Shown here: piece by piece, positions 3,889-30,060 of the stretch
How positions within the stretch are numbered: the first letter of the stretch is position 1
Layout of the letters: every line of letters begins with the position of its first letter
Source of the DNA: an uncultured Anaerolineales bacterium
Lineage (GTDB): Bacteria > Chloroflexota > Anaerolineae > B4-G1
Length of the DNA stretch: 64,000 nucleotides
Direction: 5' to 3'
Assembly (NCBI GenBank): GCA_964474655.1
Contig: CAYYTU010000001.1
Coordinates: 97,009-161,008 of the forward strand
Notes under the pieces: model-generated
The model's input: the letters and a program-made list of their open reading frames with translations, nothing else
What the model was told of the DNA's origin: nothing
Database searches by the model: none
Made by a program: the position numbers and the translations under genes

Positions 3889-3891
3889 CGT

Positions 3892-6854: not shown

Positions 6855-6882
6855 AAGTGTTTCTCCCATTGTCAGCCGGCGG

Positions 6883-8694: not shown

Positions 8695-8695
8695 A

Positions 8696-8998: not shown

Positions 8999-9000
8999 AC

Positions 9001-12921: not shown

Positions 12922-13941
12922 ATGACGAACCGGACTTTGACGTTTCGAGAAGCGCTAAACGAAGCCATGCGGCTGGAGATGCGCCGCGACCCCACTGTGA
13001 TCCTGATGGGTGAAGACGTGGCCGGCGGCGCCGAGCTCGAGCATGTGGAAGGTGAGGGCGAGGAGGCCTGGGGCGGCGTCCTGGGCGTCACGGCCGGGCT
13101 GGCCAAGGAGTTCGGCCGCGACCGCGTGCTCGACACGCCCATCAGCGAGTCGGCCTTCATCGGCGCCTCGGTCGGCGCCGCGGCCAGCGGGCTGCGGCCC
13201 ATCGCCGAGATGATGTTCGTCGACTTCTTCGGCGTCTGCATGGACCAGATCTTCAACCAGGGCGCCAAGCTGCGCTACATGTTCGGCGGCAAGGCCGAGG
13301 TGCCCATCGTGATCCGCACCATGATCGGGGCTGGCTTCCGCGCCGCTGCTCAGCACTCGAGCTCCCATTACTCGGTCTTCACCCACATGCCGGGGCTGAA
13401 GGCCGTCGTGCCCGCCACGCCGGCCGACGCCAAGGGCTTGCTGGCGGCCGCCATCCGCGACGACGACCCGGTGCTCTTCTTCGAGCACAAGCTGCTCTAC
13501 GACACCGAGGGCGAGGTGCCGGAGGGCGAGTACGTCATCCCGCTGGGTCAGGCCGATGTCAAGCGCGAGGGCAGCGACGCCACCATCGTCGCCATCGGGC
13601 GTATGGTCTTGCTGGCGCTACAGGCCGCCGAGCAGCTGGCCGACGAGGGCATCGCGGTCGAGGTGATCGACCCGCGTACCCTCTCCCCGCTGGACGAGGA
13701 AACGATCGTCGATTCGGTCAAGAAGACCCATCGCTTCATCGTGGTGGACGAGGATAACCCGCGCTGCAGTATGGCGACCGATCTGGCCGCGCTGATCGCC
13801 ACCGCGGCCTTCGACTATATGGACGCGCCGCCACAGATGGTGACGGCGCCCCACGCGCCGGTGCCCTTCAGTCCGGCCCTGGAGGATGAATATGTCCCCG
13901 GCGTGGCCGACATCGTGGAGGCCGTCAAGTCGGTGGTCTAG
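12922..13941 (+). CDS. 2-oxoacid (pyruvate/acetoin) dehydrogenase E1 component beta subunit
   Basis: Transketolase-like E1 beta (MGEDV...DTPISE, C-terminal domain). About 15-aa acidic insertion near the N-terminus. Confidence 0.9.
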   Translation: MTNRTLTFREALNEAMRLEMRRDPTVILMGEDVAGGAELEHVEGEGEEAWGGVLGVTAGLAKEFGRDRVLDTPISESAFIGASVGAAASGLRPIAEMMFVDFFGVCMDQIFNQGAKLRYMFGGKAEVPIVIRTMIGAGFRAAAQHSSSHYSVFTHMPGLKAVVPATPADAKGLLAAAIRDDDPVLFFEHKLLYDTEGEVPEGEYVIPLGQADVKREGSDATIVAIGRMVLLALQAAEQLADEGIAVEVIDPRTLSPLDEETIVDSVKKTHRFIVVDEDNPRCSMATDLAALIATAAFDYMDAPPQMVTAPHAPVPFSPALEDEYVPGVADIVEAVKSVV

Positions 13942-14028
13942 GATATCGCACACAAACGGACAGAGGGAGCCGCTTCCCGGGTGGGAAGGCTCCCTCTGTC
14001 GATAGGTAGCTACGATAGGACAGGTATT

Positions 14029-15027
14029 ATGTCAACAGTGGGAATCGTCGCCAATCCGGCCTCCGGCAAGGATATCCGCCGCCTGGTGGCCCGCAGCTCG
14101 GTCTTCGATAACAACGAAAAGGTCAACATCCTGCGCCGCCTCCTGCTGGCGCTGGACGCGCTGGGAGTGGAGCACGTGATCTTTATGCCCGATTACTACG
14201 GGCTGGGCGAGCACGCCCTGAAGCACGTTGAGCTCGCGCTGGCGGTCTCGTTCCTCGATATGGAGGTGCGCGCCGATGAGCGCGATTCGGCCGAGGCCGG
14301 ACGCCGCTTCCGCGAGATGGGAACCGAATGCATCATCACGCTGGGCGGCGACGGCACCAACCGGGCCGTGGCCAAGGGCTGCGGGCAGGTGCCGCTGGTG
14401 CCCATCTCTACCGGCACCAACAACGTGGTGCCCTGTATGGTGGAGGGGACCATCGCTGGCTTGGCGGCCGGCCTGGTTGCCAGCGGTGACGTCGATCTCG
14501 ACCGCGTCAGCCATCGCTCCAAGCGGCTGGAGGTCTATCAGGAGGGCGAGCTGATCGACATCGCGCTGGTCGACGTGGTGGTGACCAGCGAGCTCTTCAT
14601 CGGCAGCCGCGCGCTGTGGGACCCGGACACGATCCGAGAGATCGTCCTGGCCCGGGCCGAGCCGGGCAGCATCGGCATGTCGGCCATCGGCAGCCAGATT
14701 CGGCCCATCGGCCTGGAGGATGAGATGGGCATGCATCTGCTGATCGGCCCTGAGGGCACGAACGTCCTGGCGCCGGTCGCGCCGGGCCTGGTGACCCAGG
14801 TCTGCATCCGCGAGCATCAGATGCTGACGCTGGGCGACGAGGTCGCGCTGGAGGCGATGCCTTCGACGGTGGCCCTCGACGGCGAGCGGACGCTGAAGGG
14901 CTTCCCGGAGCACCCGATGACGGTGCGCCTGACGAATAATGGTCCGCGGGTGGTGGACATCGACGCCTGTATGGAGGAGGGTATCCAGACCGGCGCCTTC
15001 CGACGCCGCTGCGCGGTCGATTTCTAG
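14029..15027 (+). CDS. ATP-NAD kinase-fold protein (AcoX-like, acetoin-operon associated)
   Basis: ITLGGDGT motif of the NAD kinase/DAG kinase fold. Position between E1 and E2 matches acoX of acetoin catabolic operons. Confidence 0.6.
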   Translation: MSTVGIVANPASGKDIRRLVARSSVFDNNEKVNILRRLLLALDALGVEHVIFMPDYYGLGEHALKHVELALAVSFLDMEVRADERDSAEAGRRFREMGTECIITLGGDGTNRAVAKGCGQVPLVPISTGTNNVVPCMVEGTIAGLAAGLVASGDVDLDRVSHRSKRLEVYQEGELIDIALVDVVVTSELFIGSRALWDPDTIREIVLARAEPGSIGMSAIGSQIRPIGLEDEMGMHLLIGPEGTNVLAPVAPGLVTQVCIREHQMLTLGDEVALEAMPSTVALDGERTLKGFPEHPMTVRLTNNGPRVVDIDACMEEGIQTGAFRRRCAVDF

Positions 15028-15092
15028 ACGCAGCGCGAAATCCCAGAGAACCGTACAAGCATACGAGAAGTAGCAGACAAGGAGTGTGCAGA

Positions 15093-15398
15093 ATGGCATT
15101 GAAAGCAGCCTTCATCTTCCTGGCCCCCGAGGTCGATCCCGAGCAGCATCGTAAGACCGTGGTCACGCCCGAGGTCGAGCTGACCGCCGTGGCCGTCAAC
15201 AATTACGACGAAGCCGCAGCCGTCTGCCAGCAGCTGGTCGAAGAGGGCATCGGCGCCTTCGAGCTGTGCGGCGGCTTCGGGCACGCTGGCACCGCCCAGG
15301 TCGCCGAGGCCGTCGGCGACAAGGCCGCCGTCGGCGTCGTCCGCTTTGATCATCACCCCGGGCTCGACTTCAAGAGCGGCGACGAGCTGTTCCGATAG
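15093..15398 (+). CDS. conserved hypothetical protein (~100 aa)
   Basis: ATG at 15093 preceded by AAGGAG. No recognisable catalytic motif. Embedded in the dehydrogenase operon. Confidence 0.5.
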   Translation: MALKAAFIFLAPEVDPEQHRKTVVTPEVELTAVAVNNYDEAAAVCQQLVEEGIGAFELCGGFGHAGTAQVAEAVGDKAAVGVVRFDHHPGLDFKSGDELFR

Positions 15399-15401: not shown

Positions 15402-15833
15402 ATGAACCAGCGGAAATTCATCGTCGAGCTGGGGATGGGCGTCGACCAGCACGGTCAGGACCCCACCAACGCGGCGCGAAAAGCGGTCAAGGACGCCATC
15501 TCGCGCAGCTGCCTCACCGGCCTGATCGAGATCGCGCGGCTCAATGATATAGAACAACTCAATCAGCTGACCGTGGCGGTGCGCGTGGCCTGTCCGCAGC
15601 CGGAGCGAGTGGACGAGGCCCGCGTGCTCCAGGTCCTTCCCTTCGGACAGAAACAGATTGAGGTCGTGGAGGGCGGGATGATCGCCTCCACCGTCTACCA
15701 GCCGGAGCTGGGCGACACGACCGACGAGGCGTTCGTCGCCAACGCCACGGTGACTGTCTTCGTCGATATGGATCGCGTGCTGATGGCCTGGCGCGAGGAG
15801 CAGCCCGGGGACCAATCATCAGCTCTTGGATGA
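15402..15833 (+). CDS. Lin0512-family conserved hypothetical protein
   Basis: FIVELGMGVDQHGQDPTNAARKAVKDAI and LPFGQKQIEVVEGGM resemble the Lin0512/TIGR02058 family. Confidence 0.55.
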   Translation: MNQRKFIVELGMGVDQHGQDPTNAARKAVKDAISRSCLTGLIEIARLNDIEQLNQLTVAVRVACPQPERVDEARVLQVLPFGQKQIEVVEGGMIASTVYQPELGDTTDEAFVANATVTVFVDMDRVLMAWREEQPGDQSSALG

Positions 15834-16056: not shown

Positions 16057-17391
16057 ATGGCAAAGAAAGTGATCATGCCCAAGCTGGGTATGGCGATGAG
16101 CGAAGGCAAAGTGGTCAAGTGGCTCAAGGACGACGGCGCGGAGGTCCAGAAGGGCCAGCCGGTCGTGGCGGTGATGAGCAAGAAGATCACCTACGAGGTC
16201 GAGGCCCCGGCCGACGGTATCCTGCGCCACGTGGCCCAGCCTAAGGACGAGCTGCCCGTCGGCGGTCTGGTCGGCTTCATCCTCGCCCCAGGAGAGGAGA
16301 TGCCCGCGGTCGAGGAGGTCGCGCCGGTAGCCCCGGCAGAAGCGCCCGCCGTCGAGAAACAGAAGGAAAAGGCCAAGGAAGCGACGCCGGAAGAAGAAGT
16401 CGAGGAGGAGCCCGAGTTCGTGCGGGCCTCCCCGGCGGCCCGACGCTTGGCCGAGGAGCTGGGCGTCTCGCTGGCGCAGGTGGAGCCCACCGGCCCGCGC
16501 GGCCGCGTGGTCGAGGATGACGTCCGCCGCCACCACGAGGCGCAGGAGCGCATCCTGGCCTCGCCGCTGGCCCGTCGCATCGCGGAGGAAGAGGGGCTGG
16601 ATCTGGCCCAGGTCGAGGGCAGTGGGCCCGGCGACCGGATCGTCGAGGAGGACGTGCTGGGCGCCCTGGAGAGGCGCGAACCGTCCGCGCCGCCCCAGGC
16701 GATCCCCTTCACCGGCATGCGTGAATCGATCGCCGAGCAGATGGTCCACAGTCTGCGCACGATGGCCCAGCTGACCATCACCACCAAGGTCGACGTGACC
16801 GAGCTGCGTGAGACCCGCGCCGCGCTGCGCGAGCGTTGGGAGAAGAAGATCTCCTACACGGACCTGCTGGTCAAGGCCGTGACGGTGGCCCTGGCCGACC
16901 ATCCGCTGCTGGGCGCCCGCCTGGAGAGCGACGAGATCCTGCTGCCGACGGCGCTCAACATCGGCGTGGCGGTGGCGCTGGAGGAGGGACTGATGGTGCC
17001 CGTGATCCGGGACGCCGACCAGCTCACGGTGCCTGAGATCAGCGACGCGATCAAGGACCTGGCCCAGCGGGCTCGCTCCAACGAGCTGAGCGTGGACGAG
17101 GTGACCGAGGCGGTCTTCACCGTCACCAATATGGGGATGTTCGGTGTGGACGCCTTCACACCCATCATCAACCCGCCGGAGGTGGCCATCCTGGGCGTGG
17201 GGCGCATCGTCGAAGAGGTGGCCTGGGTCAACGGGCAGGCCCAGCCGCGGGCGATGATGACGCTCAGCCTGACCATCGATCATCGCGTGGTCGACGGCGC
17301 GCCCGGGGGCGCCTTCTTGCAGACGCTGACGCAACTGCTGGAGCACCCGGCCCTGATCTTCGCAGGCGACCAATCGCAGGAAAAGGAGTAG
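16057..17391 (+). CDS. dihydrolipoamide acyltransferase E2 component (lipoyl domain, two tandem E3-binding domains, catalytic domain)
   Basis: Lipoyl-lysine domain (MPKLGMAMSEGKVVKW). Two PSBD repeats (ASPAARRLAEELGVSLAQVEPTGPRGRVVEDDV and ASPLARRIAEEEGLDLAQVEGSGPGDRIVEEDV). Catalytic DHRVVDGA motif. Confidence 0.9.
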   Translation: MAKKVIMPKLGMAMSEGKVVKWLKDDGAEVQKGQPVVAVMSKKITYEVEAPADGILRHVAQPKDELPVGGLVGFILAPGEEMPAVEEVAPVAPAEAPAVEKQKEKAKEATPEEEVEEEPEFVRASPAARRLAEELGVSLAQVEPTGPRGRVVEDDVRRHHEAQERILASPLARRIAEEEGLDLAQVEGSGPGDRIVEEDVLGALERREPSAPPQAIPFTGMRESIAEQMVHSLRTMAQLTITTKVDVTELRETRAALRERWEKKISYTDLLVKAVTVALADHPLLGARLESDEILLPTALNIGVAVALEEGLMVPVIRDADQLTVPEISDAIKDLAQRARSNELSVDEVTEAVFTVTNMGMFGVDAFTPIINPPEVAILGVGRIVEEVAWVNGQAQPRAMMTLSLTIDHRVVDGAPGGAFLQTLTQLLEHPALIFAGDQSQEKE

Positions 17392-17394: not shown

Positions 17395-18780
17395 ATGAGC
17401 GAGAGACAAGACCTGGTGGTCATCGGCGGCGGTTCCGGCGGGTTTGCCGCGGCGATACGCGCCGCGCAGCTGGGCGGCAAGGTGACCGTGGTCGAGGAGC
17501 GATACGTGGGCGGCAATTGTATGAACAAGGCCTGCATCCCCCTCACGTTCCTGACCACGGTCGGGCACGTGGCGGAGACGATTGAAGGCGCCGGTTTCTT
17601 CGGCATCGAGGTCGACGAGCCGACCTTCGATATGGCCGCGCTCCACGACCGGCGAGAGTTGCTTATCGAAGGGCTACGGATGGGCACGGAGGAGCAGCTG
17701 AGCGATTACGGCGTCCGGCTGGTCGAAGGGCGCGGGCGCCTGATCGACCGCGGGACGGTCGAGGCGGCCAGCGAGCGGATTGAGACGCGCAACGTGGTGA
17801 TCGCCACCGGTTCCGTCTCGGCCCCGCTGCCCCTAGAGACGGGGGGCGCCGAGCTGCCCGGCGTGCTCGATACCGACGCCGCCATCGAGCTGCGCCAGAT
17901 CCCGCTGCGCATCGCCGTCATCGGCAGCTACCCCTGGGACCTGGAGCTGGCTCAGTACTTCAACTGGCTGGGCAGCGCGGTCACGCTGATCACCGCGTCC
18001 CGGCAGATGTTGGCCTGGGATGAGGTCGTGGCCGACCGCGAGGTCTCCCAGCGGCTGGCCAAGCGGCTCCACGATAGCGGCGTGGTGGTCAAGCGCGGCG
18101 TCGATGTGGAGGCGATCCGTCAGGATGACGAGGCGCTGACCGTCGTTCTGGACGGGGGCGACGAGATCCCGGTCGACAAAGTGCTGGCGGCGCGGCGCTT
18201 CCCCAACTCCAGCGGGCTGGGCCTGCGCGAGGCCGGCGTAGCGATGGAGGAGGGCGCGGTACTGGTGGACGAGCGGATGGCGACCAACGTGCCGGGCATC
18301 TACGCCATCGGCGACGTCACCGCCGGGCCGATGTGGTCCCACAAGGCGAACGCCGAGGGCCTCGTGGCCGGGGCGAACGCGATGGGTGCCGACGAGCAAA
18401 TGGACTACGAGACCATGCCCCATTGCCTCCACACCTGGCCGCCGGTGGCCTGGGTGGGCCTGACGCAGGACCAGGCCGAGGATCGCGGGCTGGATTTCGA
18501 GGTCGGCAAGGTGCCGGTGGCCATCAACCCCTACGCTATGCTCCTCAACCAAACCGAGGGCGCGATCAAGGTGATTGCCGAGCGGGCCTATGGGCGCATC
18601 CTGGGCGTCCATCTGATCGGCCCCGGCGCACTGGACCTGATCAACGTGGCCACCGTGGCGATGCTTTCCGAGGCGACGGTCCACGAGCTGATGCGGTTCA
18701 TCCCCGCGCATCCCTCCATCGGCGAGGCGCTGGTCGACGCCGCGATGGACGTGGAGAAGCGCTCGCTCCATCTGCCGTAG
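17395..18780 (+). CDS. lpd: dihydrolipoyl dehydrogenase E3 component
   Basis: FAD GxGxxG N-terminus, redox disulfide CMNKAC, C-terminal dimerisation domain with HAHPS-like motif (PAHPSIGEA). Confidence 0.9.
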   Translation: MSERQDLVVIGGGSGGFAAAIRAAQLGGKVTVVEERYVGGNCMNKACIPLTFLTTVGHVAETIEGAGFFGIEVDEPTFDMAALHDRRELLIEGLRMGTEEQLSDYGVRLVEGRGRLIDRGTVEAASERIETRNVVIATGSVSAPLPLETGGAELPGVLDTDAAIELRQIPLRIAVIGSYPWDLELAQYFNWLGSAVTLITASRQMLAWDEVVADREVSQRLAKRLHDSGVVVKRGVDVEAIRQDDEALTVVLDGGDEIPVDKVLAARRFPNSSGLGLREAGVAMEEGAVLVDERMATNVPGIYAIGDVTAGPMWSHKANAEGLVAGANAMGADEQMDYETMPHCLHTWPPVAWVGLTQDQAEDRGLDFEVGKVPVAINPYAMLLNQTEGAIKVIAERAYGRILGVHLIGPGALDLINVATVAMLSEATVHELMRFIPAHPSIGEALVDAAMDVEKRSLHLP

Positions 18781-18782
18781 TG

Positions 18783-18838
18783 GTGAATGGCGAATAGCGA
18801 ATGGTGAATGGTGAATAGCGAATGGCGAATGGCGATTG
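18783..18838. repeat. heptanucleotide tandem repeat (GYGAATR)x~8 between lpd and lipB
   Basis: tggtgaatggcgaatagcgaatggtgaatggtgaatagcgaatggcgaatggcgattg starts directly after the lpd stop. Confidence 0.8.
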
Positions 18839-18891: not shown

Positions 18892-19551
18892 GTGCTTTTC
18901 TTTCGTCTGGGAACGGTAGGCTACGAGGAGGCCCATCGGCTTCAGAAACGGCTGGCCGAGGCGCGGGCGCAGGACGCTATCGGCGATGTGGTATTGTTGC
19001 TCCAGCACAGGCCGGTGATCACCATCGGGCGCGGCGGGGGCGCGGAGGACGTGTTGGCCTCCGCCTCACTGCTGCGCCGGGAGGGCGTGCGCCTGGTGGA
19101 GACCGACCGCGGCGGCAAGGCGACCTACCACGGCCCCGGGCAACTGATCGCCTATCCGATTATGCGGGTCGAAAAGAGCGCCCTTTACGACTTCGTATGG
19201 CGTCTGGAGGAGACGGTCATCCGGGCGCTGGCGACGTACGGCCTCACGGCCGGCCGCATGGAGCAGCATCCCGGCGTCTGGGTCGACGGCGACAAAATCG
19301 CTGCCATCGGGTTGGCGGTGCGCGAGGGGGTCACCCGCCACGGCCTGGCGCTGAACGTGGCGCCCCGGATGGCCCACTTCGAGTTGCTGATTCCCTGCGG
19401 CATCACGGATCACGGCGTGACGTCGATGGCGCAGGTGCTGGGGCAGGCGCCGCCGCTGGGAGAGGTGAGCGGGCGCTTGGTGGGCACCTTCGCTCAGGTA
19501 TTCGAGTGTGACGTCGAGGCGCGGGACGGCCTTGATGGCTTTATCCGTTGA
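18892..19551 (+). CDS. lipB: lipoyl(octanoyl) transferase
   Basis: RGGKATYHGPGQ, KIAAIG and PCGI motifs of LipB. GTG start. Confidence 0.85.
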   Translation: MLFFRLGTVGYEEAHRLQKRLAEARAQDAIGDVVLLLQHRPVITIGRGGGAEDVLASASLLRREGVRLVETDRGGKATYHGPGQLIAYPIMRVEKSALYDFVWRLEETVIRALATYGLTAGRMEQHPGVWVDGDKIAAIGLAVREGVTRHGLALNVAPRMAHFELLIPCGITDHGVTSMAQVLGQAPPLGEVSGRLVGTFAQVFECDVEARDGLDGFIR

Positions 19552-19578
19552 CCTGTTTGAGGCAACAGGAGGTTTCCT

Positions 19579-20778
19579 TTGGCACGTGACAAAGAGATCA
19601 TACTGGACTTGGCGCGGCGCGACTCCACCTTCGTGGATCGTTTGGGCGCAACTAGCCGGTTGATCAGACAATGCATTCAATGTGGCACCTGTTCTTCTTC
19701 CTGTCCCACCGCCTACGCTATGGATTATACGCCGCGCCAGGTATGGCGTCTGGTGCAATGGGGCTTCGTGGAGGAGATATTGAACAGTCGCACCTTTTGG
19801 CTCTGCACGGTCTGCAACTCCTGCCAGGTGCGCTGTCGCCGGGGCATCGACATCAAGGACGCCATGGTCGCTCTCAAGGAGTGGGCCGTGCGGGAAGACG
19901 TCCGCGTCCCCGATCGCATGGGGCTGCTGGAAGAGACAGTCACCGCCTGCTACAACATCTCCGGCGACGATAACGCCAGCCGGCTCGTCTGGAGCGAGAA
20001 CCTGCTTGATCCCCCGCCAGGGGTGAAGCCCCGTCGCCAGACGGCCGAGACGGTCTACTTCGTCGGCTGCGTCAGTTCGTTCTATCCGCGGGCCTATTCC
20101 ATCCCCCGCGCCCTGGTGCAGATACTAGATCGGGCTGGGGAGGAGTTCACCACCCTGGGGGGCGAGGAGTGGTGCTGCGGCTACCCGCTTTATGTGGCGG
20201 GGATGCGCTCTCGTATGGCCGATCTGGCGCGGCATAACCTGGAGCAGGTGCGGGCAGTAGGGGCGAGGCGAGTGGTCTTCACGTGTCCCTCTTGCCTTTA
20301 CGCCTGGTCGCATCTCCACCCGGAGATGGTGGATACGTCGGGGTTGGAATTGCTCCACGCCACGGAGATGCTGGTCGATTTGTTGGATGCGGATCGCCTG
20401 GCCCTGGGGCCGGTGGAGGAGGTCGTGACTTACCACGATCCCTGCGATTTGGGGCGCAAGAACGGCATCTACGAGGCGCCGCGAGCGGTGATGGGCGCCA
20501 TCCCGGGGCTGGAGCTGCGCGAGATGTCGATGAACCGTCGGGACGCATTGTGCTGCGGGGGTGGCGGCGACGTGGAGACGGTGGACCCGGATATTCCCGT
20601 CCAGGTGGCGGAGAGACGTCTGGCCCAGGTGGAAGCGACCGGTGCCAAGTATGTCGCCTCCGCCTGTCAGCAGTGCCAACGCACGCTCCAGGAGGGAGCG
20701 CGCAGAAATCGCATCCGCATCCGCGCGATCGACGTGGTGGAACTGCTCTGGCGTTCGGTCCAGGCAGCCGATGAGTGA
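19579..20778 (+). CDS. HdrD-like Fe-S protein (fused HdrC-type 2x[4Fe-4S] + HdrB-type tandem CCG domains)
   Basis: CIQCGTCSSSCP and CTVCNSCQVRC ferredoxin motifs, followed by two Cx(n)CCG(x)n C domains (FVGCVSS...CCGYP; YHDPCDLGR...CCGGGGD). Confidence 0.8.
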   Translation: MARDKEIILDLARRDSTFVDRLGATSRLIRQCIQCGTCSSSCPTAYAMDYTPRQVWRLVQWGFVEEILNSRTFWLCTVCNSCQVRCRRGIDIKDAMVALKEWAVREDVRVPDRMGLLEETVTACYNISGDDNASRLVWSENLLDPPPGVKPRRQTAETVYFVGCVSSFYPRAYSIPRALVQILDRAGEEFTTLGGEEWCCGYPLYVAGMRSRMADLARHNLEQVRAVGARRVVFTCPSCLYAWSHLHPEMVDTSGLELLHATEMLVDLLDADRLALGPVEEVVTYHDPCDLGRKNGIYEAPRAVMGAIPGLELREMSMNRRDALCCGGGGDVETVDPDIPVQVAERRLAQVEATGAKYVASACQQCQRTLQEGARRNRIRIRAIDVVELLWRSVQAADE

Positions 20779-22759
20779 GAAGGAGTGCGCAGTGGAAAAC
20801 GTTCGGATTGGCGTCTACGTCTGTGAGTGCGGGGGGAATATCTCATCTACGGTGGACGTCGATGAGGTGGTGGCATCTATCGCCGATATGCCGGGAGTGG
20901 TGGTGGCCCGCAAGCACCGCTATATGTGCTCTGGGCCTGGTCAAAACGTGATTCAGCAGGACATCCGCGAGCATAACCTGGAGCGGGTGGTGGTGGCTTC
21001 GTGTACTCCACGGATGCACGAGCCCACTTTCCAGCGCACGTTGGAGGAGGCGGGGCTCAATCCCTTCCTGCTGGAGATGGCGAACATCCGCGAGCACGTC
21101 TCCTGGGTAGTCGAGGACCCCGATAAGGCGACGGAAAAGGCCAAGCGCCTGACGCGCGCGGCGGTGGCCCGCGTGGGACTCCATTCCGCCCTGGAACCGC
21201 GCCAGGAGCCGTTCAGCGAGGCTTCCCTGGTGGTCGGCGGGGGCATCGCCGGTATTCAGGCCGCGCTCTCCATCGCCGATATGGGCTATCAGGTCTATCT
21301 GGTGGAGCGGGAGCCCTCCATCGGCGGGCGGATGGCCCAGCTCAACAAGACGTTCCCCACCCTGGACTGTAGCACCTGAATATTGGGACCGAAGATGATG
21401 GATGTCGGTCGGCATCCCAACATCACATTGCTCAGTTGCAGCGAGGTCGAGGAGGTCTCCGGATACGTGGGCAACTTCGACGTCCGCATCCGCAAGCGGG
21501 CTCGCTTCGTGGACGAGGACCTGTGCACCGGCTGCGGCTTGTGCCAGGAGAAGTGCCCCGCGCAGGTGACGGACGAGAGCTTCGAGGCGGGGCTGGGGGA
21601 GCGGAAGGCCATCTATCGGCCCTTCGATCAGGCCATCCCCAACGTGCCCGTGCTGGACGCAGACCATTGCATCTACTTCCAGCGTGATGGGCGCTGTGGG
21701 GCCTGCGCGAAGCTCTGCCCCACCGGCGCGGTGGACTACGAGCAGGAGGATCAGCTGCTGGATGTGGAGGTGGGGACCATCATCGTGGCGACGGGCTTTG
21801 GGATGTGGGACCCGGCGCAGCTGTCGCAGTATTCCTACGGCCAATCTCCGGACGTGCTCACCGGGCTTCAGTTCGAGCGCCTGAGCAGCGCCAGCGGCCC
21901 CACCGAGGGTCGGATCGTGACCAGCGCCGGGGAGCCTCCGGAGAGCGTGGCCATCATTCACTGCGTCGGCAGTCGCGACGAGAATGCGCACGCCTATTGT
22001 TCGCGCGTCTGTTGCATGTATGCCCTGAAGCAGGCCCATCTGGTCCGCGAGAAGACCGAGGCGGAGGTATACGAGTTCTACATCGATATGCGCACCTCCA
22101 GCAAGACGTACGAGGAGTTCTACGAGCGGCTGCAAGGGGAGGAGGTGACGTTCGTGCGCGGTCACGTCGCCGAGGTGGAAGTATTGCCGGATGATCGGCT
22201 GCGCGTGCGGGGGGAGGACGCCGACCTGGGCTGGGTCTTCGCGCTAGATGTCGATATGGTCGTCTTGGCCTCGGCCATTGAGCCGCAGCCAGATGCCGGG
22301 CACGTGGCGGCGCTGTTCGGTCTCGGACGCGCTGCCGACGGTTGGTTCTCCGAGGCTCATCCAAAGTTGCGCCCGGTGGAGACCAACGTCGGGGGCGTCT
22401 TTCTGGCCGGTTGCTGCCAGGGGCCGCGGGACATACCGGACACGGTGGCCCACGCCGAGGCCGCGGCTCACGAGGCGGTCAAGCTCCACAATCGCGGCCA
22501 AGTCACCATCTCGCCCCTGGTGGCCGTGGTGGACGAGGATCTCTGCTCCGCCTGCAAGACCTGCCTGACGCTCTGTCCCTACGAGGCCATCAGCTTCGTC
22601 CCAGAGGAGGGCGTGGCGCGTGTGAACGAGGCGCTGTGTAAGGGCTGCGGCACCTGCGTGGCGGCTTGCCCGGCCGGAGCGATCACTGCCCGGCATTTCA
22701 CGAGCGAGCAGATCCTGGCGCAGATCGAGAGCCTCTTCCGAGCGCCTGTGGAGCGGTAG
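20771..22759 (+). CDS. hdrA: heterodisulfide reductase subunit A-like flavoprotein, predicted selenoprotein (in-frame TGA at 21377-21379 = residue 203)
   Basis: ORFs 20561..21379 and 21383..22759 share one frame and are separated only by a TGA. HdrA N-terminal Cys domain (VYVCECGGNIS...CSGPG...ASCTPRMHEPTF). FAD site (VVGGGIAGIQAA...[28 protein letters not shown]). Inserted and C-terminal ferredoxin domains. ATG overlaps the hdrD-like stop (ATGAGTGA). Confidence 0.75.
21383..21420 (+). other. candidate bacterial SECIS hairpin immediately 3' of the hdrA UGA
   Basis: TTGGGA(21383-88) pairs with TCCCAA(21415-20). Inner CCGA/TCGG plus further G-U/G-C pairs. Starts 4 nt after the TGA. Confidence 0.4.
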
Positions 22760-23263: not shown

Positions 23264-23746
23264 ATGCCAGGTAGACTGAAGTTCATCATCGCAGGGCTGC
23301 TGATCGTAGCTGCTGTGGTTTATTTGATCGTCACCAGCACGGGCAGCACGGCGCGCTACTTTATGACCGTGCAAGAGTTGCAGGCGATGAGCGATGCTGG
23401 CGAGCGTAACGTCACAATCTCTGGCGCGGTGCTGGGAGATACTATCGCTTATGATTCCTCCAGGCCTCGCGTGACTTTTACCATTGTGCAGGTGCCCGGC
23501 GATCCCAAGGAGGTGGAGCGGGCCGGCGGGCTGTCCAAGGTGCTCCACGATGCTGTCAACGACCCCGATGCCCCGCGCCTGGAAATCGTCTACGACGACG
23601 TGAAGCCCGATCTCTTGCAGCACGAGAGCCAGGCCATCATACGCGGTCGATTGCAGGAAGACGGCCGCTTCCACGCCGATGAGGTGCTCCTCAAGTGCCC
23701 CACGCGTTACGAGGAGGGCGTGCCGGACCAGGGTGAGGAGGGATGA
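23264..23746 (+). CDS. ccmE: cytochrome c-type biogenesis heme chaperone CcmE (CxxxY variant)
   Basis: N-terminal TM anchor and OB-fold. C-terminal LLKCPTRYEEGVP sits where the canonical LAKHDEKY heme-binding motif is, with Cys instead of His. Confidence 0.75.
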   Translation: MPGRLKFIIAGLLIVAAVVYLIVTSTGSTARYFMTVQELQAMSDAGERNVTISGAVLGDTIAYDSSRPRVTFTIVQVPGDPKEVERAGGLSKVLHDAVNDPDAPRLEIVYDDVKPDLLQHESQAIIRGRLQEDGRFHADEVLLKCPTRYEEGVPDQGEEG

Positions 23747-26262
23747 TGCTAGCGCAGATTGGCTCCGTTCTCACGGCTTTGGCGTTGACCGCGGCTCTGT
23801 ACGCGGCCTTCGCCATATATTGGTCCATTCGGCGAGATGATTTACGCTGGGCTGCCAGTGGTCGTAACGCCGTCTATGCCGCTGCCGGGCTGCTGGGGCT
23901 GGCCGTGCTGGTCCTGTTGGCGGCTTTCCTCGACGACCAATTTTACATCCGGTACGTGGCTCAGCACTCCAGCCGCGCCCTACCGTTTTACCTGAAGGCG
24001 TCGGCGGTTTGGGGCGGGCAAGCGGGGTCGCTGTTGCTCTGGTCGTTCTTACAGGCGCTCTTCGCCGCGCTGTTGGTGTGGCATCCGCCAAGGCAGGGGC
24101 GTGTGTTGATTCCCTGGGCGACGGTCTTCCTCAGCTTGATCACGGTCTTTTTCACCGCTGTGACGCTCTTCCTCTCCAATCCGTTTGCGATGGCGACGAC
24201 GGTGCCGGCCGATGGGCAAGGGCTCAATCCGCTGCTTCGTCATCCCGGGATGATCTTCCATCCCCCGGCGATGTATCTGGGCTACGTCGGGCTGGCGGTG
24301 CCCTTCGCCCTGGCCCTGGCGGCGGTGGTCGTCCGGCGCGTCGACGATTGGCCCGCGGCCGCTCGCCGCTGGACCCTGGCGGCCTGGCTCTTTCTGGGGC
24401 TGGGGTTGTTGCTGGGAATGCGTTGGGCCTACGATGTGTTGGGCTGGGGCGGGTATTGGGGCTGGGACCCGGTGGAGAACGCCGGATTGATGCCCTGGCT
24501 CACCGCGACGGCCTTGCTTCATGGTTTGGTGATGCAGGACCAACGACGTGGATTTCGCTGGTGGAACCTGTTGCTGGTCCTTCTTTCATTTGTGTTGGTG
24601 CTCTTCGGTACCTTCACCACGCGCAGCGGCCTGATTCAGTCCGTACACGCTTTTGCTCGTTCCAATCTGGGCCTCTACTTCTTGGGCGCGATTGCCCTGA
24701 CGCTATTGGGCTCGCTGGCTCTGTTCTTCACTCGTCGGTCGCTGCTGACCGATGATGAGGCCACGGATGACCTCTTCTCACGCGAAGGAATGTTCATCCT
24801 GACGTTGATTCTATTTTTGACCATTACAGTCTCCGTGTTCGTTGGTAGTACCTTGCCCACGCTCACCGGGGGGACGTTCGAGGCGCCTCCGGCCTGGTTC
24901 GATCGGGTCACTGGCCCGCAGTTCGCCGCGCTGGTGCTGGTGATGGGCCTCTGTCCGCTGCTGGGCCGGGCCGTCAACGCGCTGCGCCAGCTGGAGCGAC
25001 GTGGGTTCAGCGCGTTGTTGGGAAGCGTGTTGGTGACGGGGATTGCCGTGCTGGTCGGCTTCACGCGCCCAGCTTCGCTTATTGGCTTCGCCATTGTTGG
25101 TCTGGCCGGTGGGACGGCCCTGGGTGAGATAAGTCGTGCTCTCGCTGCCCGCGTCCGCAAGGGCGAGGGGCCGGCTCAGGCATTGTGGCGTCTCTTCGGG
25201 CGGAACCATCGCCGTTACGGCGGCTACCTGGTCCATTTGGGCGTGATCTTGATGGCCGTGGGCGTCATCGGCACGCGCTTCTATCCCTTCGAGACCGAGA
25301 TAGTGATAGCGCCTGGCGAATCCATCACGGTGGGCGACTATGCTCTGGTCTTCGAGGACTTGAAGCAAGAGTCCGCCAGCGATCACGTTTCCACTCGCGC
25401 CTCGCTCGCGGTCTATCGCGGCGATAAGCATTTGCGCACGCTCTATCCTCAGCTGGACAATTACCAGGATTTCCATCAAACAATCGCGATTCCCGCGGTG
25501 CGGGCCGGCGTGCGGGAGGACCTCTATTTGATTCTGGCGGGTTGGTCCGATGGTGGTACCAGCGCGACGTTCAAGGTCTTCATCAACCCGCTGGCTATGT
25601 TCCTCTGGCTGGGCGGGCTGGTCTTTATGGCCGGCGGCGCGGTGGCATTGTGGCCGTCGCTGGACGAGGCGCGACTCTCCGCGCCCCAGATGCGTCGTCG
25701 TCGCGTATGGAGCGTCCTTGGCCTGGGTGTGGGTGTGGTTCTGTTGGCGTTAGCCGTGTGGGCGATGTGGGGCACTGGGCAGGGCACGGCTGCTCCAGCG
25801 CCAGATTCTGGCGCCCAACTGGCTCAATCGCAGTCGTCGCGCGTCCGCGAGGGTGAGCCAGCGCCTGGCTTTGCGCTTGATCTCTTGGACGAATCCACGC
25901 TCGACCTCGCCGACCTGCGGGGGGAAGTGGTGGTGCTCAACTTCTGGGCCACCTGGTGTCCGCCTTGCGAGGACGAGCTGCCCGACTTCCAGTCCGTGTG
26001 GGAGGATTATCGTCAGCGCAATGTCGTCTTCGTGGGCCTGACCATCCAGGAGGATATGGCCGAGGTGGAGGAGATGCTTGCTCGGTTGGGCGTCACATAC
26101 CCGGTCGGGCTCGACGCTCAACAGCAAATCGCCCTTGAGTACGGCATCACCGGCGTGCCGGAGACCTTCGTGATCGATCCCCAGGGTGACGTGGCTTCCG
26201 TCCACATCGGGCCGGTGAGCGCCGGGCAGCTCCGTCAGGACCTGGACAACTTGCTGGAGTGA
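23743..26262 (+). CDS. ccmF: cytochrome c-type biogenesis protein CcmF fused to a C-terminal thioredoxin-like (CcmG/TlpA/ResA-type) domain
   Basis: WWD motif WGGYWGWDPVENA and polytopic CcmF body (~650 aa). Residues ~690-839 form a TlpA-like domain (VLNFWATWCPPCEDELP). ATGA overlap with ccmE. Confidence 0.85.
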   Translation: MMLAQIGSVLTALALTAALYAAFAIYWSIRRDDLRWAASGRNAVYAAAGLLGLAVLVLLAAFLDDQFYIRYVAQHSSRALPFYLKASAVWGGQAGSLLLWSFLQALFAALLVWHPPRQGRVLIPWATVFLSLITVFFTAVTLFLSNPFAMATTVPADGQGLNPLLRHPGMIFHPPAMYLGYVGLAVPFALALAAVVVRRVDDWPAAARRWTLAAWLFLGLGLLLGMRWAYDVLGWGGYWGWDPVENAGLMPWLTATALLHGLVMQDQRRGFRWWNLLLVLLSFVLVLFGTFTTRSGLIQSVHAFARSNLGLYFLGAIALTLLGSLALFFTRRSLLTDDEATDDLFSREGMFILTLILFLTITVSVFVGSTLPTLTGGTFEAPPAWFDRVTGPQFAALVLVMGLCPLLGRAVNALRQLERRGFSALLGSVLVTGIAVLVGFTRPASLIGFAIVGLAGGTALGEISRALAARVRKGEGPAQALWRLFGRNHRRYGGYLVHLGVILMAVGVIGTRFYPFETEIVIAPGESITVGDYALVFEDLKQESASDHVSTRASLAVYRGDKHLRTLYPQLDNYQDFHQTIAIPAVRAGVREDLYLILAGWSDGGTSATFKVFINPLAMFLWLGGLVFMAGGAVALWPSLDEARLSAPQMRRRRVWSVLGLGVGVVLLALAVWAMWGTGQGTAAPAPDSGAQLAQSQSSRVREGEPAPGFALDLLDESTLDLADLRGEVVVLNFWATWCPPCEDELPDFQSVWEDYRQRNVVFVGLTIQEDMAEVEEMLARLGVTYPVGLDAQQQIALEYGITGVPETFVIDPQGDVASVHIGPVSAGQLRQDLDNLLE

Positions 26263-26323
26263 GATGGTAGGCAAGTGAGGCAAGTTCACGGATAGCAATA
26301 TGGACGTCTGGAAGTGAGAAGTT

Positions 26324-26575
26324 ATGGAGATTGGGGCAATTCTAATCGGTATTGCGTTGACGGTAATCGTCGGGGCATATTTGGCCCGACCTTTTCGTGC
26401 GGGAAACGTCGATGATCAAGTAATCGAAACCTGGGTCTCGCGTGCCCGGAATGAGAGTGGGGATGTGCCGGGGAGTGAAGAATCGGCGGCGGTCAATTTC
26501 TGCCCGCAGTGTGGCCGGCGTGTCGCTCCCGACGACCGCTTCTGTGCTGGCTGCGGCAGACAACTACGGGGGTGA
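26324..26575 (+). CDS. small membrane-anchored zinc-ribbon protein
   Basis: N-terminal TM helix, C-terminal CPQCG...CAGCG zinc ribbon. Confidence 0.5.
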   Translation: MEIGAILIGIALTVIVGAYLARPFRAGNVDDQVIETWVSRARNESGDVPGSEESAAVNFCPQCGRRVAPDDRFCAGCGRQLRG

Positions 26576-26580
26576 GGACG

Positions 26581-27804
26581 ATGATGAGGAGTGACGTGCG
26601 CCGAGCTGAGCTTGTCGAAAGCCCACGAGTTTTACGTTTCACGGTGGTCGCACTGTTTCTCTTCGCTGCTCTGCTGACCATGGCCTGGGCTCCCCATCCT
26701 CAAACCGGTTCGGTCTCCATCACTGGCCAGGTGACCAACGGCACGCCGGACGGCGCTGTGCCGGAGGATCTCGCGGTCACGCTCCACATCTTCGCCGAGA
26801 TGGAGGAGCGAGACGTCTATACCACGACGTTGGGAACCGATACCACTTTCCGCTTTGAGGACGTCGCTCTGTCCGAGGGGGATACCCTGGTGACGCGGGC
26901 TCTCTACGACGGCGTGATGTACACCTCGGCGTTTACATCCGCCACGTCCACGGCGGATGAGCAGGAGATCGCCTTGCCGATCACGATCTACGAAACGACC
27001 GATGATCCCGGCGAGGTCTTGATATCCCAGCTGCACGTGTTTGTCAATCAGGTAGGTGATCGCCTCCAGATCGGTCAATACTGTCTGATCAGCAACACCG
27101 GTGATCGTGCCTACCGGGGAACGGTGGACCCGCAGACCGGCGAGCGTATGACGTTGGCTTTTGAGTTGCCGGCAGGGGGAGAGAATCTTAGCTTCGATGA
27201 CGCTGGCAGTGAGCGATATGTGACGCGCGAGAACGGCTTCGCCGATACCAGGCCGGTTCTGCCGGGCGACAGCACCGTCGAGATCTCCTTCAATTACGAG
27301 ATCCCCTATCAGGAGGGGATGGAGGTGCAGCAGGCGTTTGACGTTCCGGTCCGCGCTGGCGTGTTGGTGCTCCCCGAGGGCGATATCGAGTTGGTGGGAG
27401 AGGGAATCTCGTCGGAAGGGACCATCGATACGCAGATGGGGCCGGCGCTTTCCTATACCGCTGGGCCGCTGGCGGCCGACGAGTCGTTGACGTTCAACGT
27501 CGTCTCTCAGCCGACAATCTCACAGGGCAGCACAGGATCTGATCAGCGGACAAGCAGAGGGGCTGGCTCTGGTAGGGCGCGTGGGATTGCCGTGGGGCTG
27601 GCGGCGCTGGCTGCCGCGGGTGTGGCGGCTTATCTGATGTGGCGCTCGCCGGGGCAAAGGACGGTGCCGGCGCAGGTGCGCTCGCAGGTGGAGGCCATCG
27701 CCGTGCTGGATGCTGACTTCGAGGCCGGGCGCGTATCCGAGGAGGATTATCGAAAGAAGCGCCGGTCGCTCAAGCGCGAGGTGCGGGAGCAGCTTGCAGG
27801 GTAA
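26581..27804 (+). CDS. bitopic membrane protein with large extracytoplasmic domain and C-terminal SHOCT-like motif
   Basis: Start ATGATG after GGTGAGGA. TM helices near both ends. C-terminal LDADFEAGRVSEEDYRKKRRSLKREV resembles the SHOCT short C-terminal domain. Confidence 0.55.
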   Translation: MMRSDVRRAELVESPRVLRFTVVALFLFAALLTMAWAPHPQTGSVSITGQVTNGTPDGAVPEDLAVTLHIFAEMEERDVYTTTLGTDTTFRFEDVALSEGDTLVTRALYDGVMYTSAFTSATSTADEQEIALPITIYETTDDPGEVLISQLHVFVNQVGDRLQIGQYCLISNTGDRAYRGTVDPQTGERMTLAFELPAGGENLSFDDAGSERYVTRENGFADTRPVLPGDSTVEISFNYEIPYQEGMEVQQAFDVPVRAGVLVLPEGDIELVGEGISSEGTIDTQMGPALSYTAGPLAADESLTFNVVSQPTISQGSTGSDQRTSRGAGSGRARGIAVGLAALAAAGVAAYLMWRSPGQRTVPAQVRSQVEAIAVLDADFEAGRVSEEDYRKKRRSLKREVREQLAG

Positions 27805-27840
27805 CAGCGAGGCTGACAAAGTTTCCGGGCGAGTTTACAT

Positions 27841-28197
27841 TTACAGATCGAACAGGTAGCGCAATCTCTCGGTCACTTTTGCTCTCAGCGGTGGCGATAG
27901 ATCCCCGATCTCACGCCGGATGATGGACGTGCTGACCGTCATCAGGCGATGTAGCCGAAGCACTGATGAGACCCGCAGGCCCGTCCTGGCGAAATCGGGA
28001 TGGTTGGTATCTATCACAATGTCCGTTTCCAACAAATTGTTGGGGGCTTGACTGGTGATAAACGCCAAGATGACGTGGTTGTAGGGGCCAAGAGGCTCAG
28101 TCATGCAGACAGCTGGTCGCACCTTCGTCGTTGTGAGGTCGTCGAAGGGGAAGGGAACCAGGACAACTTTACCCTGCGTCGTGGAATGGCTTCCCAT
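27841..28197 (-). CDS. type II toxin, PemK/MazF-family mRNA interferase
   Basis: GKVVLVPFPFDDLTTTKVRPAVCM N-terminus is typical of MazF/PemK. 118 aa. Confidence 0.75.
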   Translation of the reverse strand: MGSHSTTQGKVVLVPFPFDDLTTTKVRPAVCMTEPLGPYNHVILAFITSQAPNNLLETDIVIDTNHPDFARTGLRVSSVLRLHRLMTVSTSIIRREIGDLSPPLRAKVTERLRYLFDL

Positions 28198-28423
28198 CGT
28201 CCAGCGAGTAGATGTCCTCTTCGGGCTCTTTTAGGAAGTCGAAGGCCGGGTTGGAAGCAGCCGCTTGCAGCCACTCGGCTTCGTCTATATCGGATGCTTC
28301 TTCGACCAGGATGATGACCCGCACGCGGCTTGGGCCAGCGAAGGGGAGTGGCTCGTCTAGGAGCAGACGTTGCTGCTCGTCGACAGTTCCTGTCGTTTCT
28401 ATCGCTTTCTTCAAGGATGTCAT
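28169..28423 (-). CDS. putative cognate antitoxin (DUF2281-like acidic C-terminus)
   Basis: 84 aa, overlaps the toxin start by 29 nt. C-terminal EAEWLQAAASNPAFDFLKEPEEDIYSLDD pattern. Confidence 0.55.
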   Translation of the reverse strand: MTSLKKAIETTGTVDEQQRLLLDEPLPFAGPSRVRVIILVEEASDIDEAEWLQAAASNPAFDFLKEPEEDIYSLDDGKPFHDAG

Positions 28424-28556
28424 CTATTGCTCCTTTGCACCCGACGTTAAGCTCGCTGGTATGTTACCATAGGTTTTGGCAAAGACAACTCGTTGGATAT
28501 GACAGGGTGAGCGCATTTAGTTTCCAATTTGCAAAACGATGGCGAACCTCTGCTTT

Positions 28557-28627
28557 TTTAGACAGGATTCACAAGAGTGACAATCTTTTTTATCAAACCT
28601 ATTCTGGGAATCCTTTTCATCCTGTCT
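28557..28627. promoter_or_regulatory. 11-bp perfect inverted repeat pair (TTAGACAGGAT ... ATCCTGTCTAA) in AT-rich region between the TA operon and ccmA
   Basis: Arms at 28557-28567 and 28617-28627, about 50 bp apart. Encloses a GTGACA-17nt-TATTCT promoter-like stretch. Confidence 0.4.
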
Positions 28628-28657
28628 AACAAACACAAACGCGTTTCCCCGATTGGA

Positions 28658-29357: not shown

Positions 29358-29384
29358 ATCGTTAACGCAACACAGAACACGTCG

Positions 29385-30056: not shown

Positions 30057-30060
30057 AGGG

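Follow-up and report, generated by a model that had tools for sequence, protein, structure and literature searches.

What does a heterodisulfide reductase-like (Hdr-like) protein pair do at the end of an operon for a lipoyl-dependent dehydrogenase? The question is raised by a 64-kb stretch of DNA from an uncultured Anaerolineales bacterium (hereafter the window; unless a locus is named, coordinates refer to it), in which the genes for an HdrD-like protein and for HdrA directly follow lipB, at the end of an acetoin/2-oxoacid dehydrogenase operon. We compared the arrangement with 79 species-level genome loci anchored on HdrD homologues, considering neighbours within 10 kb; related loci are designated by L numbers. 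The comparison points to lipB-hdrD-hdrA as the local form of a Chloroflexota module that would tie an HdrD-type enzyme to protein-bound lipoate. For HdrD itself, we propose the role of an iron-sulfur (Fe-S) lipoyl-protein disulfide oxidoreductase coupled by HdrA to ferredoxin, a proposal that we regard as evenly poised between right and wrong; its substrate, reaction direction and partners are inferred from gene order, domains, motifs and conservation.

HdrD and HdrA behind lipB

Genes in the window were called by listing and translating open reading frames (ORFs), followed by Pfam and NCBIfam profile matching. All ten genes – E1 alpha, E1 beta, an AcoX-like gene, two genes for small proteins, E2, E3, lipB, hdrD and hdrA – lie on the plus strand, which bears out the co-directional array described in an earlier note on this DNA. 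Among the spacings that the note gave, the 8-nt overlap between hdrD and hdrA (ATGAGTGA) stands, while the E3-lipB gap reads as 111 nt rather than 112 bp and the lipB-hdrD gap as 27 nt rather than 28 bp. LipB, a lipoyl(octanoyl) transferase (18892-19551, plus strand), exceeds the curated NCBIfam equivalog cut-offs (NF010925, 185.7 bits against 155; TIGR00214, 143 against 83.6). The 27-nt spacer behind it (19552-19578, plus strand) contains a GGAGG ribosome-binding site and a weak 6-bp hairpin lacking a U-tract, and a scan for sigma-70 promoters and terminators from E3 to hdrA yielded this one weak hairpin and nothing convincing.

The HdrD-like protein (19579-20778, plus strand; two Pfam CCG domains and a Fer4 dicluster domain) consists of an N-terminal HdrC-like domain for two [4Fe-4S] clusters fused to two HdrB-like CCG sites, the full equipment of an HdrD/HdrBC-type protein. 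Both five-cysteine motifs are complete (C164...C199C200G...C236PSC239 and C289...C325C326G...C363QQC366), and all ten cysteines are invariant in an alignment of 26 homologues. HdrD nevertheless scores below every NCBIfam equivalog cut-off (best TfrB, 161 against 385), and its best match by sequence among solved structures is mycobacterial EtfD (9ojn, E 2.4e-33), followed by HdrC and HdrB. In EtfD the CCG sites are non-catalytic: motif 1 has Thr in place of its second Cys, and the ligands of cluster 2 include a His that completes it (CxHC) (PMC13083937). HdrD has neither change, as it carries CC in both motifs and C-P-S-C as the CxxC of motif 1; since the Thr and His substitutions of EtfD are absent, the HdrD motifs match the catalytic HdrB pattern. 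No HdrE-like gene was found in the window, and the window HdrD has no membrane domain.

HdrA (20771-22759, plus strand) is a full-length methanogen-type flavoprotein, with residues 3-660 aligning to 4-657 of 8rvu_a (E 8e-227), and a predicted selenoprotein. It comprises an N-terminal Fe-S domain, a thioredoxin-reductase-like domain for flavin adenine dinucleotide (FAD), an inserted ferredoxin domain and a C-terminal ferredoxin domain (in Pfam terms, FAD/NAD-binding plus three Fer4 stretches) and lacks the C-terminal MvhD-like part found in HdrA2. Its scores are below the NCBIfam equivalog cut-offs (HdrA2, 842 bits against 1100; HdrA, 605 against 1400). The CxGxRDx6-8CSxxCC motif is present as HCVGSRDENAHAYCSRVCC, and selenocysteine (Sec) takes the place of Cys in FPTLDCSxC: the UGA codon (21377-21379, plus strand) aligns with a Cys of solved methanogen HdrA, and the same position is encoded by TGA in 46 homologues and by a Cys codon (TGC/TGT) in 12. 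A hairpin resembling a selenocysteine insertion sequence (core GGAUGUC-GGUC-GGCAUCC) is predicted to fold at 21394-21424 on the plus strand, 17-47 nt 3' of the UGA. The GGUC-loop hairpin is conserved in the TGA homologues, with one stem pair covarying as C-G/U-A/U.G, and is missing in most homologues with a Cys codon. An Rfam scan gave no match, and a tRNA scan of the window found no tRNA, hence no tRNA-Sec there. Sec at this position of HdrA is, we take it, already known from methanogens. Both proteins are under strong purifying selection as compared to a sister species, with ratios of non-synonymous to synonymous substitution rates (dN/dS) of 0.095 for HdrD and 0.084 for HdrA.

Lipoyl carriers and lipoate ligases beside HdrD in related genomes

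As judged by tblastn, a GcvH-like lipoyl carrier, an Lpl(AB) lipoate ligase or both are encoded within 10 kb of HdrD in 38 of the 79 loci (the carrier in 32, the ligase in 24, both in 18). Among the 35 loci whose sequence extends 5 kb or more to each side, the count is 20. We estimate the chance level at about 1-2%, taking these genes to be present at one to two copies per several-Mb genome. The linkage can be very tight: 13 GcvH genes are located within 220 bp of HdrD and seven ligase genes within 80 bp. Its frequency differs with the partner of HdrD, from 21/25 for NarI-linked HdrD through 14/34 for HdrD adjacent to HdrA to 1/8 where a [NiFe] hydrogenase is present.

Unbiased clustering of the neighbour ORFs (minimum length 80 aa) recovered the same genes. 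Since greedy ORF calling in the high-GC loci produced many antisense shadow ORFs, we kept same-strand families confirmed by Pfam or tblastn. The recurrent families are HdrA (36 loci), GcvH-like (29), MvhD/FlpD (23), Lpl(AB) (22), NarI-type membrane protein (15), NuoE/NuoF (9-11), HdrB (10), molybdopterin formate-dehydrogenase-like (8), the [NiFe] hydrogenase large and small subunits (7 and 6, respectively) and a GlcD-like flavoprotein (7). In relatives, the genes after the HdrD-HdrA pair often encode MvhD (29 loci), a [NiFe] hydrogenase (8), formate dehydrogenase (Fdh; 11) or NuoE/NuoF (11), and NarI-like partners occur in 25 loci. HdrD is also found in unrelated contexts (neighbourhoods P0059 and P0067).

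In the 16 closest HdrD loci examined (65-82% identity) GcvH lies upstream in 11, mostly immediately so. In L003-L006, L082-84 and L090-91, whose HdrD is 76-82% identical, the order is GcvH-like (143 aa), HdrD, the N-terminal part of HdrA with the same TGA, NuoE, NuoE, NuoF, a fusion of the N-terminus of NuoG with the C-terminal part of HdrA, and Lpl(AB). L007 and L111 have the minimal GcvH-HdrD-LplA, L043 has HdrD-HdrA-MvhD-GcvH-LplA, and L053, L059, L064, L073, L078 and L079, among others, have NarI-like-HdrD-GcvH-LplA or GcvH-NarI-like-HdrD-LplA. L008 reads LplA-HdrD-HdrA, with the ligase in exactly the position of the window lipB. In the window, the ligase position is thus held by LipB, a non-homologous lipoylation enzyme, with a lipoyl-bearing E2 and E3 encoded upstream, and we count this arrangement in favour of a link to lipoate.

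The strongest single argument appears to us to come from one conserved chromosomal slot, which lies between cmk-DUF512-glmS and hisK-response regulator-lepB, with flanking proteins 63-93% identical. The slot holds GcvH-HdrD-LplA in L007, GcvH-HdrD-split HdrA/NuoEEF-LplA in L004, L082-84 and L090, and GcvH-NarI-like-HdrD-LplA in L078, where the HdrD belongs to another subfamily (about 46% identical). What is retained is the carrier, an HdrD-type protein and the ligase; what is swapped is the electron-input module and even hdrD itself. Persistence of the trio through such swaps is the pattern expected from selection on a functional unit.

The GcvH-like proteins are 143 aa long and very uniform; in the 31 aligned, the lipoyl-lysine invariably lies in ESGKW (for example L082:9252-9683), where canonical H-proteins read ESVKA. 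A representative passes the general GcvH model and scores just below the strict gcvH equivalog cut-off of NCBIfam, and neither the annotated loci nor the recurrent neighbour families showed gcvT or gcvP beside these genes. Seven loci have rpsT immediately 5' of the GcvH-like gene. Both HdrD and the GcvH-like protein also give weak matches to curated Desulfovibrio-type NCBIfam models, NF045810 ('GcvH-related protein') and NF045663 ('pyridine nucleotide-disulfide oxidoreductase/dicluster-binding protein near Sec', whose C-terminus is HdrD-like), a possible sign of a related gene pair in sulfate reducers that has been curated separately.

The split of HdrA deserves a separate description. It falls within the inserted ferredoxin domain and occurs in L004, L005, L006, L012, L014, L019, L020, L028, L030, L035, L082-84, L087 and L090 (for example L082:11200-16599): an N-terminal piece of 195+80 aa with the TGA is followed by two NuoE-like proteins, a NuoF-like protein and a fusion protein that starts with a NuoG-like 2Fe-2S/4Fe-4S N-terminus and continues as the C-terminal two-thirds of HdrA. 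This amounts to the insertion of an NADH-dehydrogenase module into the gene of a bifurcating flavoprotein. Loci with the split HdrA and NuoEF (L011, L012, L014, L017, L019-L021, L028, L030, L035 and L087) also encode a PHP-domain protein, a histidine-kinase-like ATPase, a 392-aa protein with no Pfam match and small proteins of about 122 aa, a set that resembles the regulators beside HydABC-type hydrogenase genes.

Candidate substrate and competing explanations

We envisage that HdrD would reversibly reduce the dithiolane disulfide of a protein lipoyl-lysine at its two noncubane [4Fe-4S] sites, as an Fe-S analogue of the flavoenzyme E3, and that HdrA, with its FAD, full set of Fe-S clusters and Sec, would connect HdrD to ferredoxin. 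In relatives HdrA could link on via MvhD/[NiFe] hydrogenase, Fdh or NuoE/NuoF to H2, formate or NAD(H), links that would permit flavin-based bifurcation or confurcation with lipoyl/dihydrolipoyl as the higher-potential couple; the NarI-like membrane subunit of other relatives would connect the same chemistry to quinones. The carrier in most relatives would be the dedicated 143-aa GcvH-like protein, lipoylated by the co-located Lpl(AB). In this lineage, hdrDA would have been placed behind the lipB that closes the acetoin/2-oxoacid dehydrogenase operon, the likely local substrate would be the lipoyl domain of E2, an unlinked GcvH-like protein that LipB lipoylates, or both, and the likeliest local reaction would be ferredoxin-linked reduction or re-oxidation of lipoyl, parallel to NAD-linked E3. 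The simplest proposal that we infer for HdrDA alone is a ferredoxin:lipoyl-protein oxidoreductase. With a standard potential (E0') of -0.29 V for lipoamide, as quoted in PMC6067878, both H2- or formate-driven bifurcation onto ferredoxin and lipoyl and confurcation of ferredoxin and dihydrolipoyl onto H+ or NAD+ are feasible. The window also holds an operon for a ferredoxin-type group-4 hydrogenase (see below), which we count as support.

On the side of known enzymes, the methanogen HdrABC-MvhAGD/HdrDE systems (5odc, 8rvu; Wagner et al. 2017 as cited in PMC13083937) are matched in three respects: HdrA aligns over its full length, the Cys/Sec position included; the window HdrD equals HdrC plus HdrB with both CCG motifs complete; and relatives have MvhD, MvhG/A or Fdh past HdrA, or a NarI/HdrE-like subunit ahead of HdrD. 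The differences lie in the bacterial host with no visible coenzyme M/coenzyme B (CoM/CoB) context, in a proposed disulfide that is protein-bound lipoyl, and in a window pair without adjoining MvhD, hydrogenase or HdrE. E3, or L-protein, shares the proposed lipoyl/dihydrolipoyl interconversion on E2 lipoyl domains and H-proteins, but it is an unrelated FAD/NAD disulfide oxidoreductase that uses NAD only, whereas HdrD would work by Fe-S (CCG) chemistry with ferredoxin, H2, formate or quinone as partners; a genuine E3 is encoded in the operon as well.

Hdr-like genes are widespread in non-methanogenic anaerobes. To our knowledge, their disulfide substrate has been established for methanogens alone, where it is CoM-S-S-CoB; for sulfate reducers DsrC has been proposed, and for sulfur oxidisers there is a link to LbpA. 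A trio of carrier, HdrD and ligase with swappable modules provides a concrete candidate substrate for a large group of Chloroflexota Hdr proteins. If the proposal is true, there would be a second, Fe-S-based route for cycling protein-bound lipoate besides E3, lipoate-dependent metabolism (acetoin/2-oxoacid oxidation, glycine cleavage) would be tied directly to ferredoxin, H2 or formate pools, and flavin-based electron bifurcation would gain a new acceptor. Because the window variant sits on a classical dehydrogenase operon, E2-bound lipoate is directly testable as a substrate. A broader hypothesis, which we put forward tentatively and hold to be somewhat more probably wrong than right, is that the Chloroflexota HdrD-type CCG enzymes are lipoyl-protein oxidoreductases for which lipoyl-GcvH (here possibly lipoyl-E2) is the counterpart of the methanogen heterodisulfide; through swappable modules, bifurcation or confurcation would connect lipoyl with ferredoxin, H2, formate, NAD(H) or quinone, bypassing or complementing E3 and perhaps driving glycine cleavage/synthesis or 2-oxoacid/acetoin oxidation under anoxia.

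How far does the linkage to the dehydrogenase genes reach? We ran all ten window proteins by tblastn against the 79 loci. The aco-lipB-hdrDA arrangement is present in one sister species at about 90% amino-acid identity, in several independent assemblies (E2 90%, E3 89%, LipB 84%, HdrD 89%, HdrA 91%; lipB-hdrD spacer about 25 nt). Past this species it is not conserved: none of the 79 loci has a homologue of E1, E2 or LipB near HdrD, and E3 is matched in just two of them, weakly, on the opposite strand and at a distance of 7-9 kb. We therefore rejected a conserved aco-hdr operon beyond the sister species, and there the neighbourhood test by which the earlier note was prepared to see its proposal fall, read literally, went against it. 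The same dehydrogenase operon is conserved in L092 and L094-96. In the close relative represented by L094-96, the whole operon (E1 91-94%, E2 and E3 85%, LipB 77% identical to the window) ends at lipB, followed by unrelated genes, without hdrDA. The adjacency of E3 and LipB in the absence of hdr genes indicates that LipB belongs to the dehydrogenase operon and that hdrDA is an add-on or was lost there; by this comparison LipB appears to be the last gene of an ancestral aco-type operon, and the exact aco-lipB-hdrDA arrangement appears young. A metagenome scan for LipB returned genes 41-47% identical and without hdr, which is uninformative on close relatives. The action of the Hdr pair on E2-bound lipoamide that the note envisaged has thus come apart into two claims: a tie to protein-bound lipoate is strongly suggested by the GcvH and Lpl(AB) genes beside the closest HdrD relatives, while partnership with an aco-type E2 is specific to this organism and one sister species. 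The window is itself a rare sub-variant: a classical E2 takes the place of the carrier, and LipB that of the ligase.

Several points weigh against the lipoyl-protein proposal. The functional evidence is guilt by association throughout. No lipoate gene is present in the available sequence of 41 of the 79 loci, and HdrD-HdrA with [NiFe] hydrogenase is linked to one in only 1/8. The GcvH-like protein may simply be a housekeeping H-protein. In the window no third redox partner of HdrA is encoded nearby, and the added value of HdrDA is unclear given that the operon already has an E3. NADH-driven bifurcation onto lipoamide is implausible because the potentials of NADH and lipoamide are nearly equal. 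The aco linkage is limited to two sister species and is missing in a near relative, so that neutral rearrangement could account for it. Finally, synonymous divergence (dS) from the sister species shows a roughly threefold gap, at 0.62-0.69 for HdrD and HdrA, 0.35 for LipB and 0.23 for E2 and E3; the two halves of the array may have separate histories or differing codon constraints. Amino-acid identity to the sister species is alike across the genes from E2 to HdrA (84-93%) despite this gap.

The likeliest rival explanation is incidental juxtaposition: a generic bacterial Hdr, whose partner genes lie elsewhere and whose substrate is a disulfide other than lipoyl (of a small thiol cofactor or a DsrC-like protein), would have come to lie beside lipB by a recent rearrangement. 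The restriction of the aco linkage to this organism and one sister, the operon of L094-96 without hdrDA, the 0/79 count in other species, the many HdrD-HdrA pairs that have MvhD, [NiFe] hydrogenase or Fdh beside them but lack a lipoate gene within reach, and a dS of hdrDA unlike that of the aco genes all fit this explanation. Yet it leaves unexplained why GcvH and Lpl(AB) flank the closest HdrD relatives, why the trio persists in one slot despite module swaps, and why hdrDA landed 27 nt behind a lipoylation gene and is held there under purifying selection. We consider it unlikely, if a serious contender.

A second explanation, to which we assign a slimmer chance, is that HdrD(A) serves cofactor maintenance, setting the redox state of lipoyl groups or repairing them during or after attachment, for example by reducing lipoyl-GcvH that is oxidised or damaged for the ligase or relay, or that the dihydrolipoyl-protein acts as a thiol reductant in oxidative stress. 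Closest and most constant beside HdrD are indeed the carrier and the enzyme of lipoylation, be it Lpl(AB) or LipB, rather than catabolic genes, and the minimal trio of L007 and L111 has no energy-coupling module. A bifurcation-type Sec-HdrA, MvhD/hydrogenase, Fdh, NuoEF and a NarI-like cytochrome b would, however, be heavy equipment for a housekeeping role, and no peroxiredoxin or repair genes recurred in the neighbourhood clustering.

HdrD might also be an electron wire which, like EtfD, GlcF and GlpC, passes the electrons of a flavoprotein (E3, for example) to HdrA and ferredoxin without any chemistry at the CCG sites. EtfD, an EtfD/EMO-type membrane Fe-S oxidoreductase (Rv0338c; 9ojn; PMC13083937), shares with the window HdrD a layout of two [4Fe-4S] domains and two CCG domains, is matched ahead of HdrB by the window HdrD, and is mirrored by the NarI-like plus HdrD combination of relatives; moreover, GlcD-like flavoproteins lie beside paralogous HdrD copies in 7-8 loci. 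The CCG clusters of EtfD are fully coordinated and non-catalytic, whereas HdrD keeps its CC pairs, has no such His and no membrane domain, and both of its motifs are of the catalytic type and invariant. What recurs beside HdrD is a lipoyl carrier with a ligase rather than a flavoprotein dehydrogenase, and no electron-transfer flavoprotein genes were seen in the annotated neighbourhoods. We hold the wire to be improbable.

The closest known arrangement is the sHdr-LbpA system of sulfur oxidisers (Cao et al. 2018, PMC6067878), which also couples Hdr-like Fe-S/flavin genes to a GcvH-like carrier and a dedicated lipoate-attachment enzyme. The searched literature on HdrD/HdrA with GcvH, lipoyl or Anaerolineae gave nothing beyond it, in keeping with the statement in the note that it is the sole precedent, and in that literature the HdrD-lipoyl arrangement has no earlier description. 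In the sHdr-LbpA model the Hdr-like complex reduces lipoyl and E3 re-oxidises it (PMC6067878); the window has an E3 gene two genes upstream of hdrD. A lipoate-attachment enzyme is likewise at hand, with LipB 27 nt upstream of hdrD. An adjacent carrier is missing in the window (tblastn) and present in 32/79 loci of relatives; the E2, E3 and LipB of the dehydrogenase operon stand in its place. Unlike sHdr, with HdrB1C1/HdrB2C2 and a hypothetical protein, the window has only a fused HdrD plus HdrA, separate HdrB/HdrC being confined to some distant loci; its HdrA is full-length and methanogen-type, with ferredoxin domains and Sec; the Mvh, Fdh, Nuo and NarI modules of relatives are exchangeable; and the hosts are Anaerolineae, which are not known sulfur oxidisers. 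DsrE, TusA, rhodanese and LipS1/S2 were not found in the Pfam-annotated loci L082-84, L090, L097-100 and L111 or among the scanned window genes within about 10-14 kb of the module, and no sulfurtransferase or LipS1/S2 was recognised among the recurrent neighbour families (ORFs of at least 80 aa). Hence, despite a GcvH-like carrier and dedicated ligase beside Hdr-like genes as in sHdr, we rejected as barely credible a form of sulfur oxidation with sulfane sulfur offered to an Hdr-like complex on the lipoyl carrier: the hdrC1B1A-hyp-hdrC2B2 set with its HdrB/C pairs, the sulfurtransferase genes and adjacent LipS1/S2 radical-SAM genes are all missing from the genes covered, and HdrA has ferredoxin domains typical of bifurcating enzymes.

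Dehydrogenase operon, flanking genes and the E3-lipB junction

The genes upstream of lipB contain everything expected of an acetoin/2-oxoacid dehydrogenase operon, as judged by Pfam and NCBIfam. E1 alpha of a thiamine pyrophosphate-dependent 2-oxoacid/acetoin dehydrogenase (11880-12905, plus strand; PF00676 E1_dh, E 7.6e-101), whose top NCBIfam model is pyruvate dehydrogenase E1 alpha at 374 bits, slightly below the cut-off, is followed by E1 beta (12922-13941, plus strand; Transket_pyr and Transketolase_C) and an AcoX-like protein of the NAD-kinase family (13981-15027, plus strand; PF01513 NAD_kinase, E 8e-12), whose gene keeps the same operon position in L094-96. Two small proteins come next, matching DUF6506 (15084-15398, plus strand) and Lin0512_fam (15402-15833, plus strand) in Pfam; the pair is also found between the AcoX-like gene and E2 in the operon of relatives (L094:6057-6783). 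The E2 acyltransferase (16057-17391, plus strand; Biotin_lipoyl, E3_binding and 2-oxoacid_dh) has one lipoyl domain and two E3_binding stretches, in agreement with the duplicated E3-binding domain noted earlier. Its lipoyl-lysine region (residues 36-50) reads VAVMSKKITYEVEAP, differing from the usual ...TDKA... context of E2 lipoyl-lysines. E3, the dihydrolipoyl dehydrogenase (17395-18780, plus strand; TIGR01350, 384 bits against a cut-off of 409), has its redox-active centre CMNKAC at residues 42-47.

Using the proteins of relatives as tblastn queries, we found no gene for MvhD, MvhA/G, FdhA, NuoE/F, HdrB, GcvH or Lpl(AB) in the window. The absence of canonical Hdr partners reported earlier thus stands for MvhD and Mvh beside hdrDA in the window (Flx and Qmo were not specifically searched), but it does not extend to relatives, whose HdrD-HdrA pair often has MvhD, hydrogenase, Fdh or NuoE/NuoF. 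Likewise, an adjacent electron-donor module for HdrA (MvhD plus hydrogenase, Fdh, or one using F420 or NADH) is absent from the window and present in many relatives. Two look-ups for the organism's own GcvH-like gene returned close GcvH homologues that belonged to other samples. The tblastn searches gave two further matches in the window, a short ferredoxin-motif match of the NuoF query (161-325, minus strand) and the large subunit of a group-4 [NiFe] hydrogenase. The latter, which is NuoD-like and has both CxxC nickel-binding motifs, is encoded in a membrane-bound hydrogenase/Mrp-like operon (47-9646, minus strand) together with NuoB-, NuoC- and NuoK/J-like subunits, three subunits of antiporter type and a Fer4 protein. 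The operon suggests ferredoxin-linked H2 metabolism in this organism. The flanks of the window also include mgtE.

Downstream, a cytochrome c maturation (ccm) cluster starts 504 nt past hdrA (23264-30762, plus strand) and encodes CcmE, an 839-aa CcmF fused to a thioredoxin/AhpC-TSA-like domain, a 431-aa protein without assignment, CcmA, CcmB and CcmC. A functional tie between hdrDA and these genes (CcmE, CcmF-thioredoxin) was considered and rejected, as the sister species differs downstream, with a multihaem cytochrome on the opposite strand after hdrA (L098:4297-6423), and no relative has ccm genes there.

The spacer between E3 and lipB contains a 7-bp tandem repeat, TGGCGAA, in 7.9 copies (18781-18835, TRF), and Logan short-read contigs of the same organism break within it, ending at 18828 and 18802 with a 27-nt overlap. 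Two Joint Genome Institute (JGI) metagenome contigs of the sister species run across the junction, L097 carrying E2-E3-LipB-HdrD-HdrA and L100 the end of E3 followed by LipB, HdrD and HdrA; the join is therefore genuine, and mis-assembly at this point is ruled out. The copy number of the heptamer, TGGCGAA or TGGTGAA, varies, with more copies in L100 of the sister species than the 7.9 of the window (L097:2907-2931; L100:118-198). In L014 (4475-4535), the heptamer occurs as two arrays inverted with respect to each other, which make up a hairpin resembling a terminator just 5' of hdrA.

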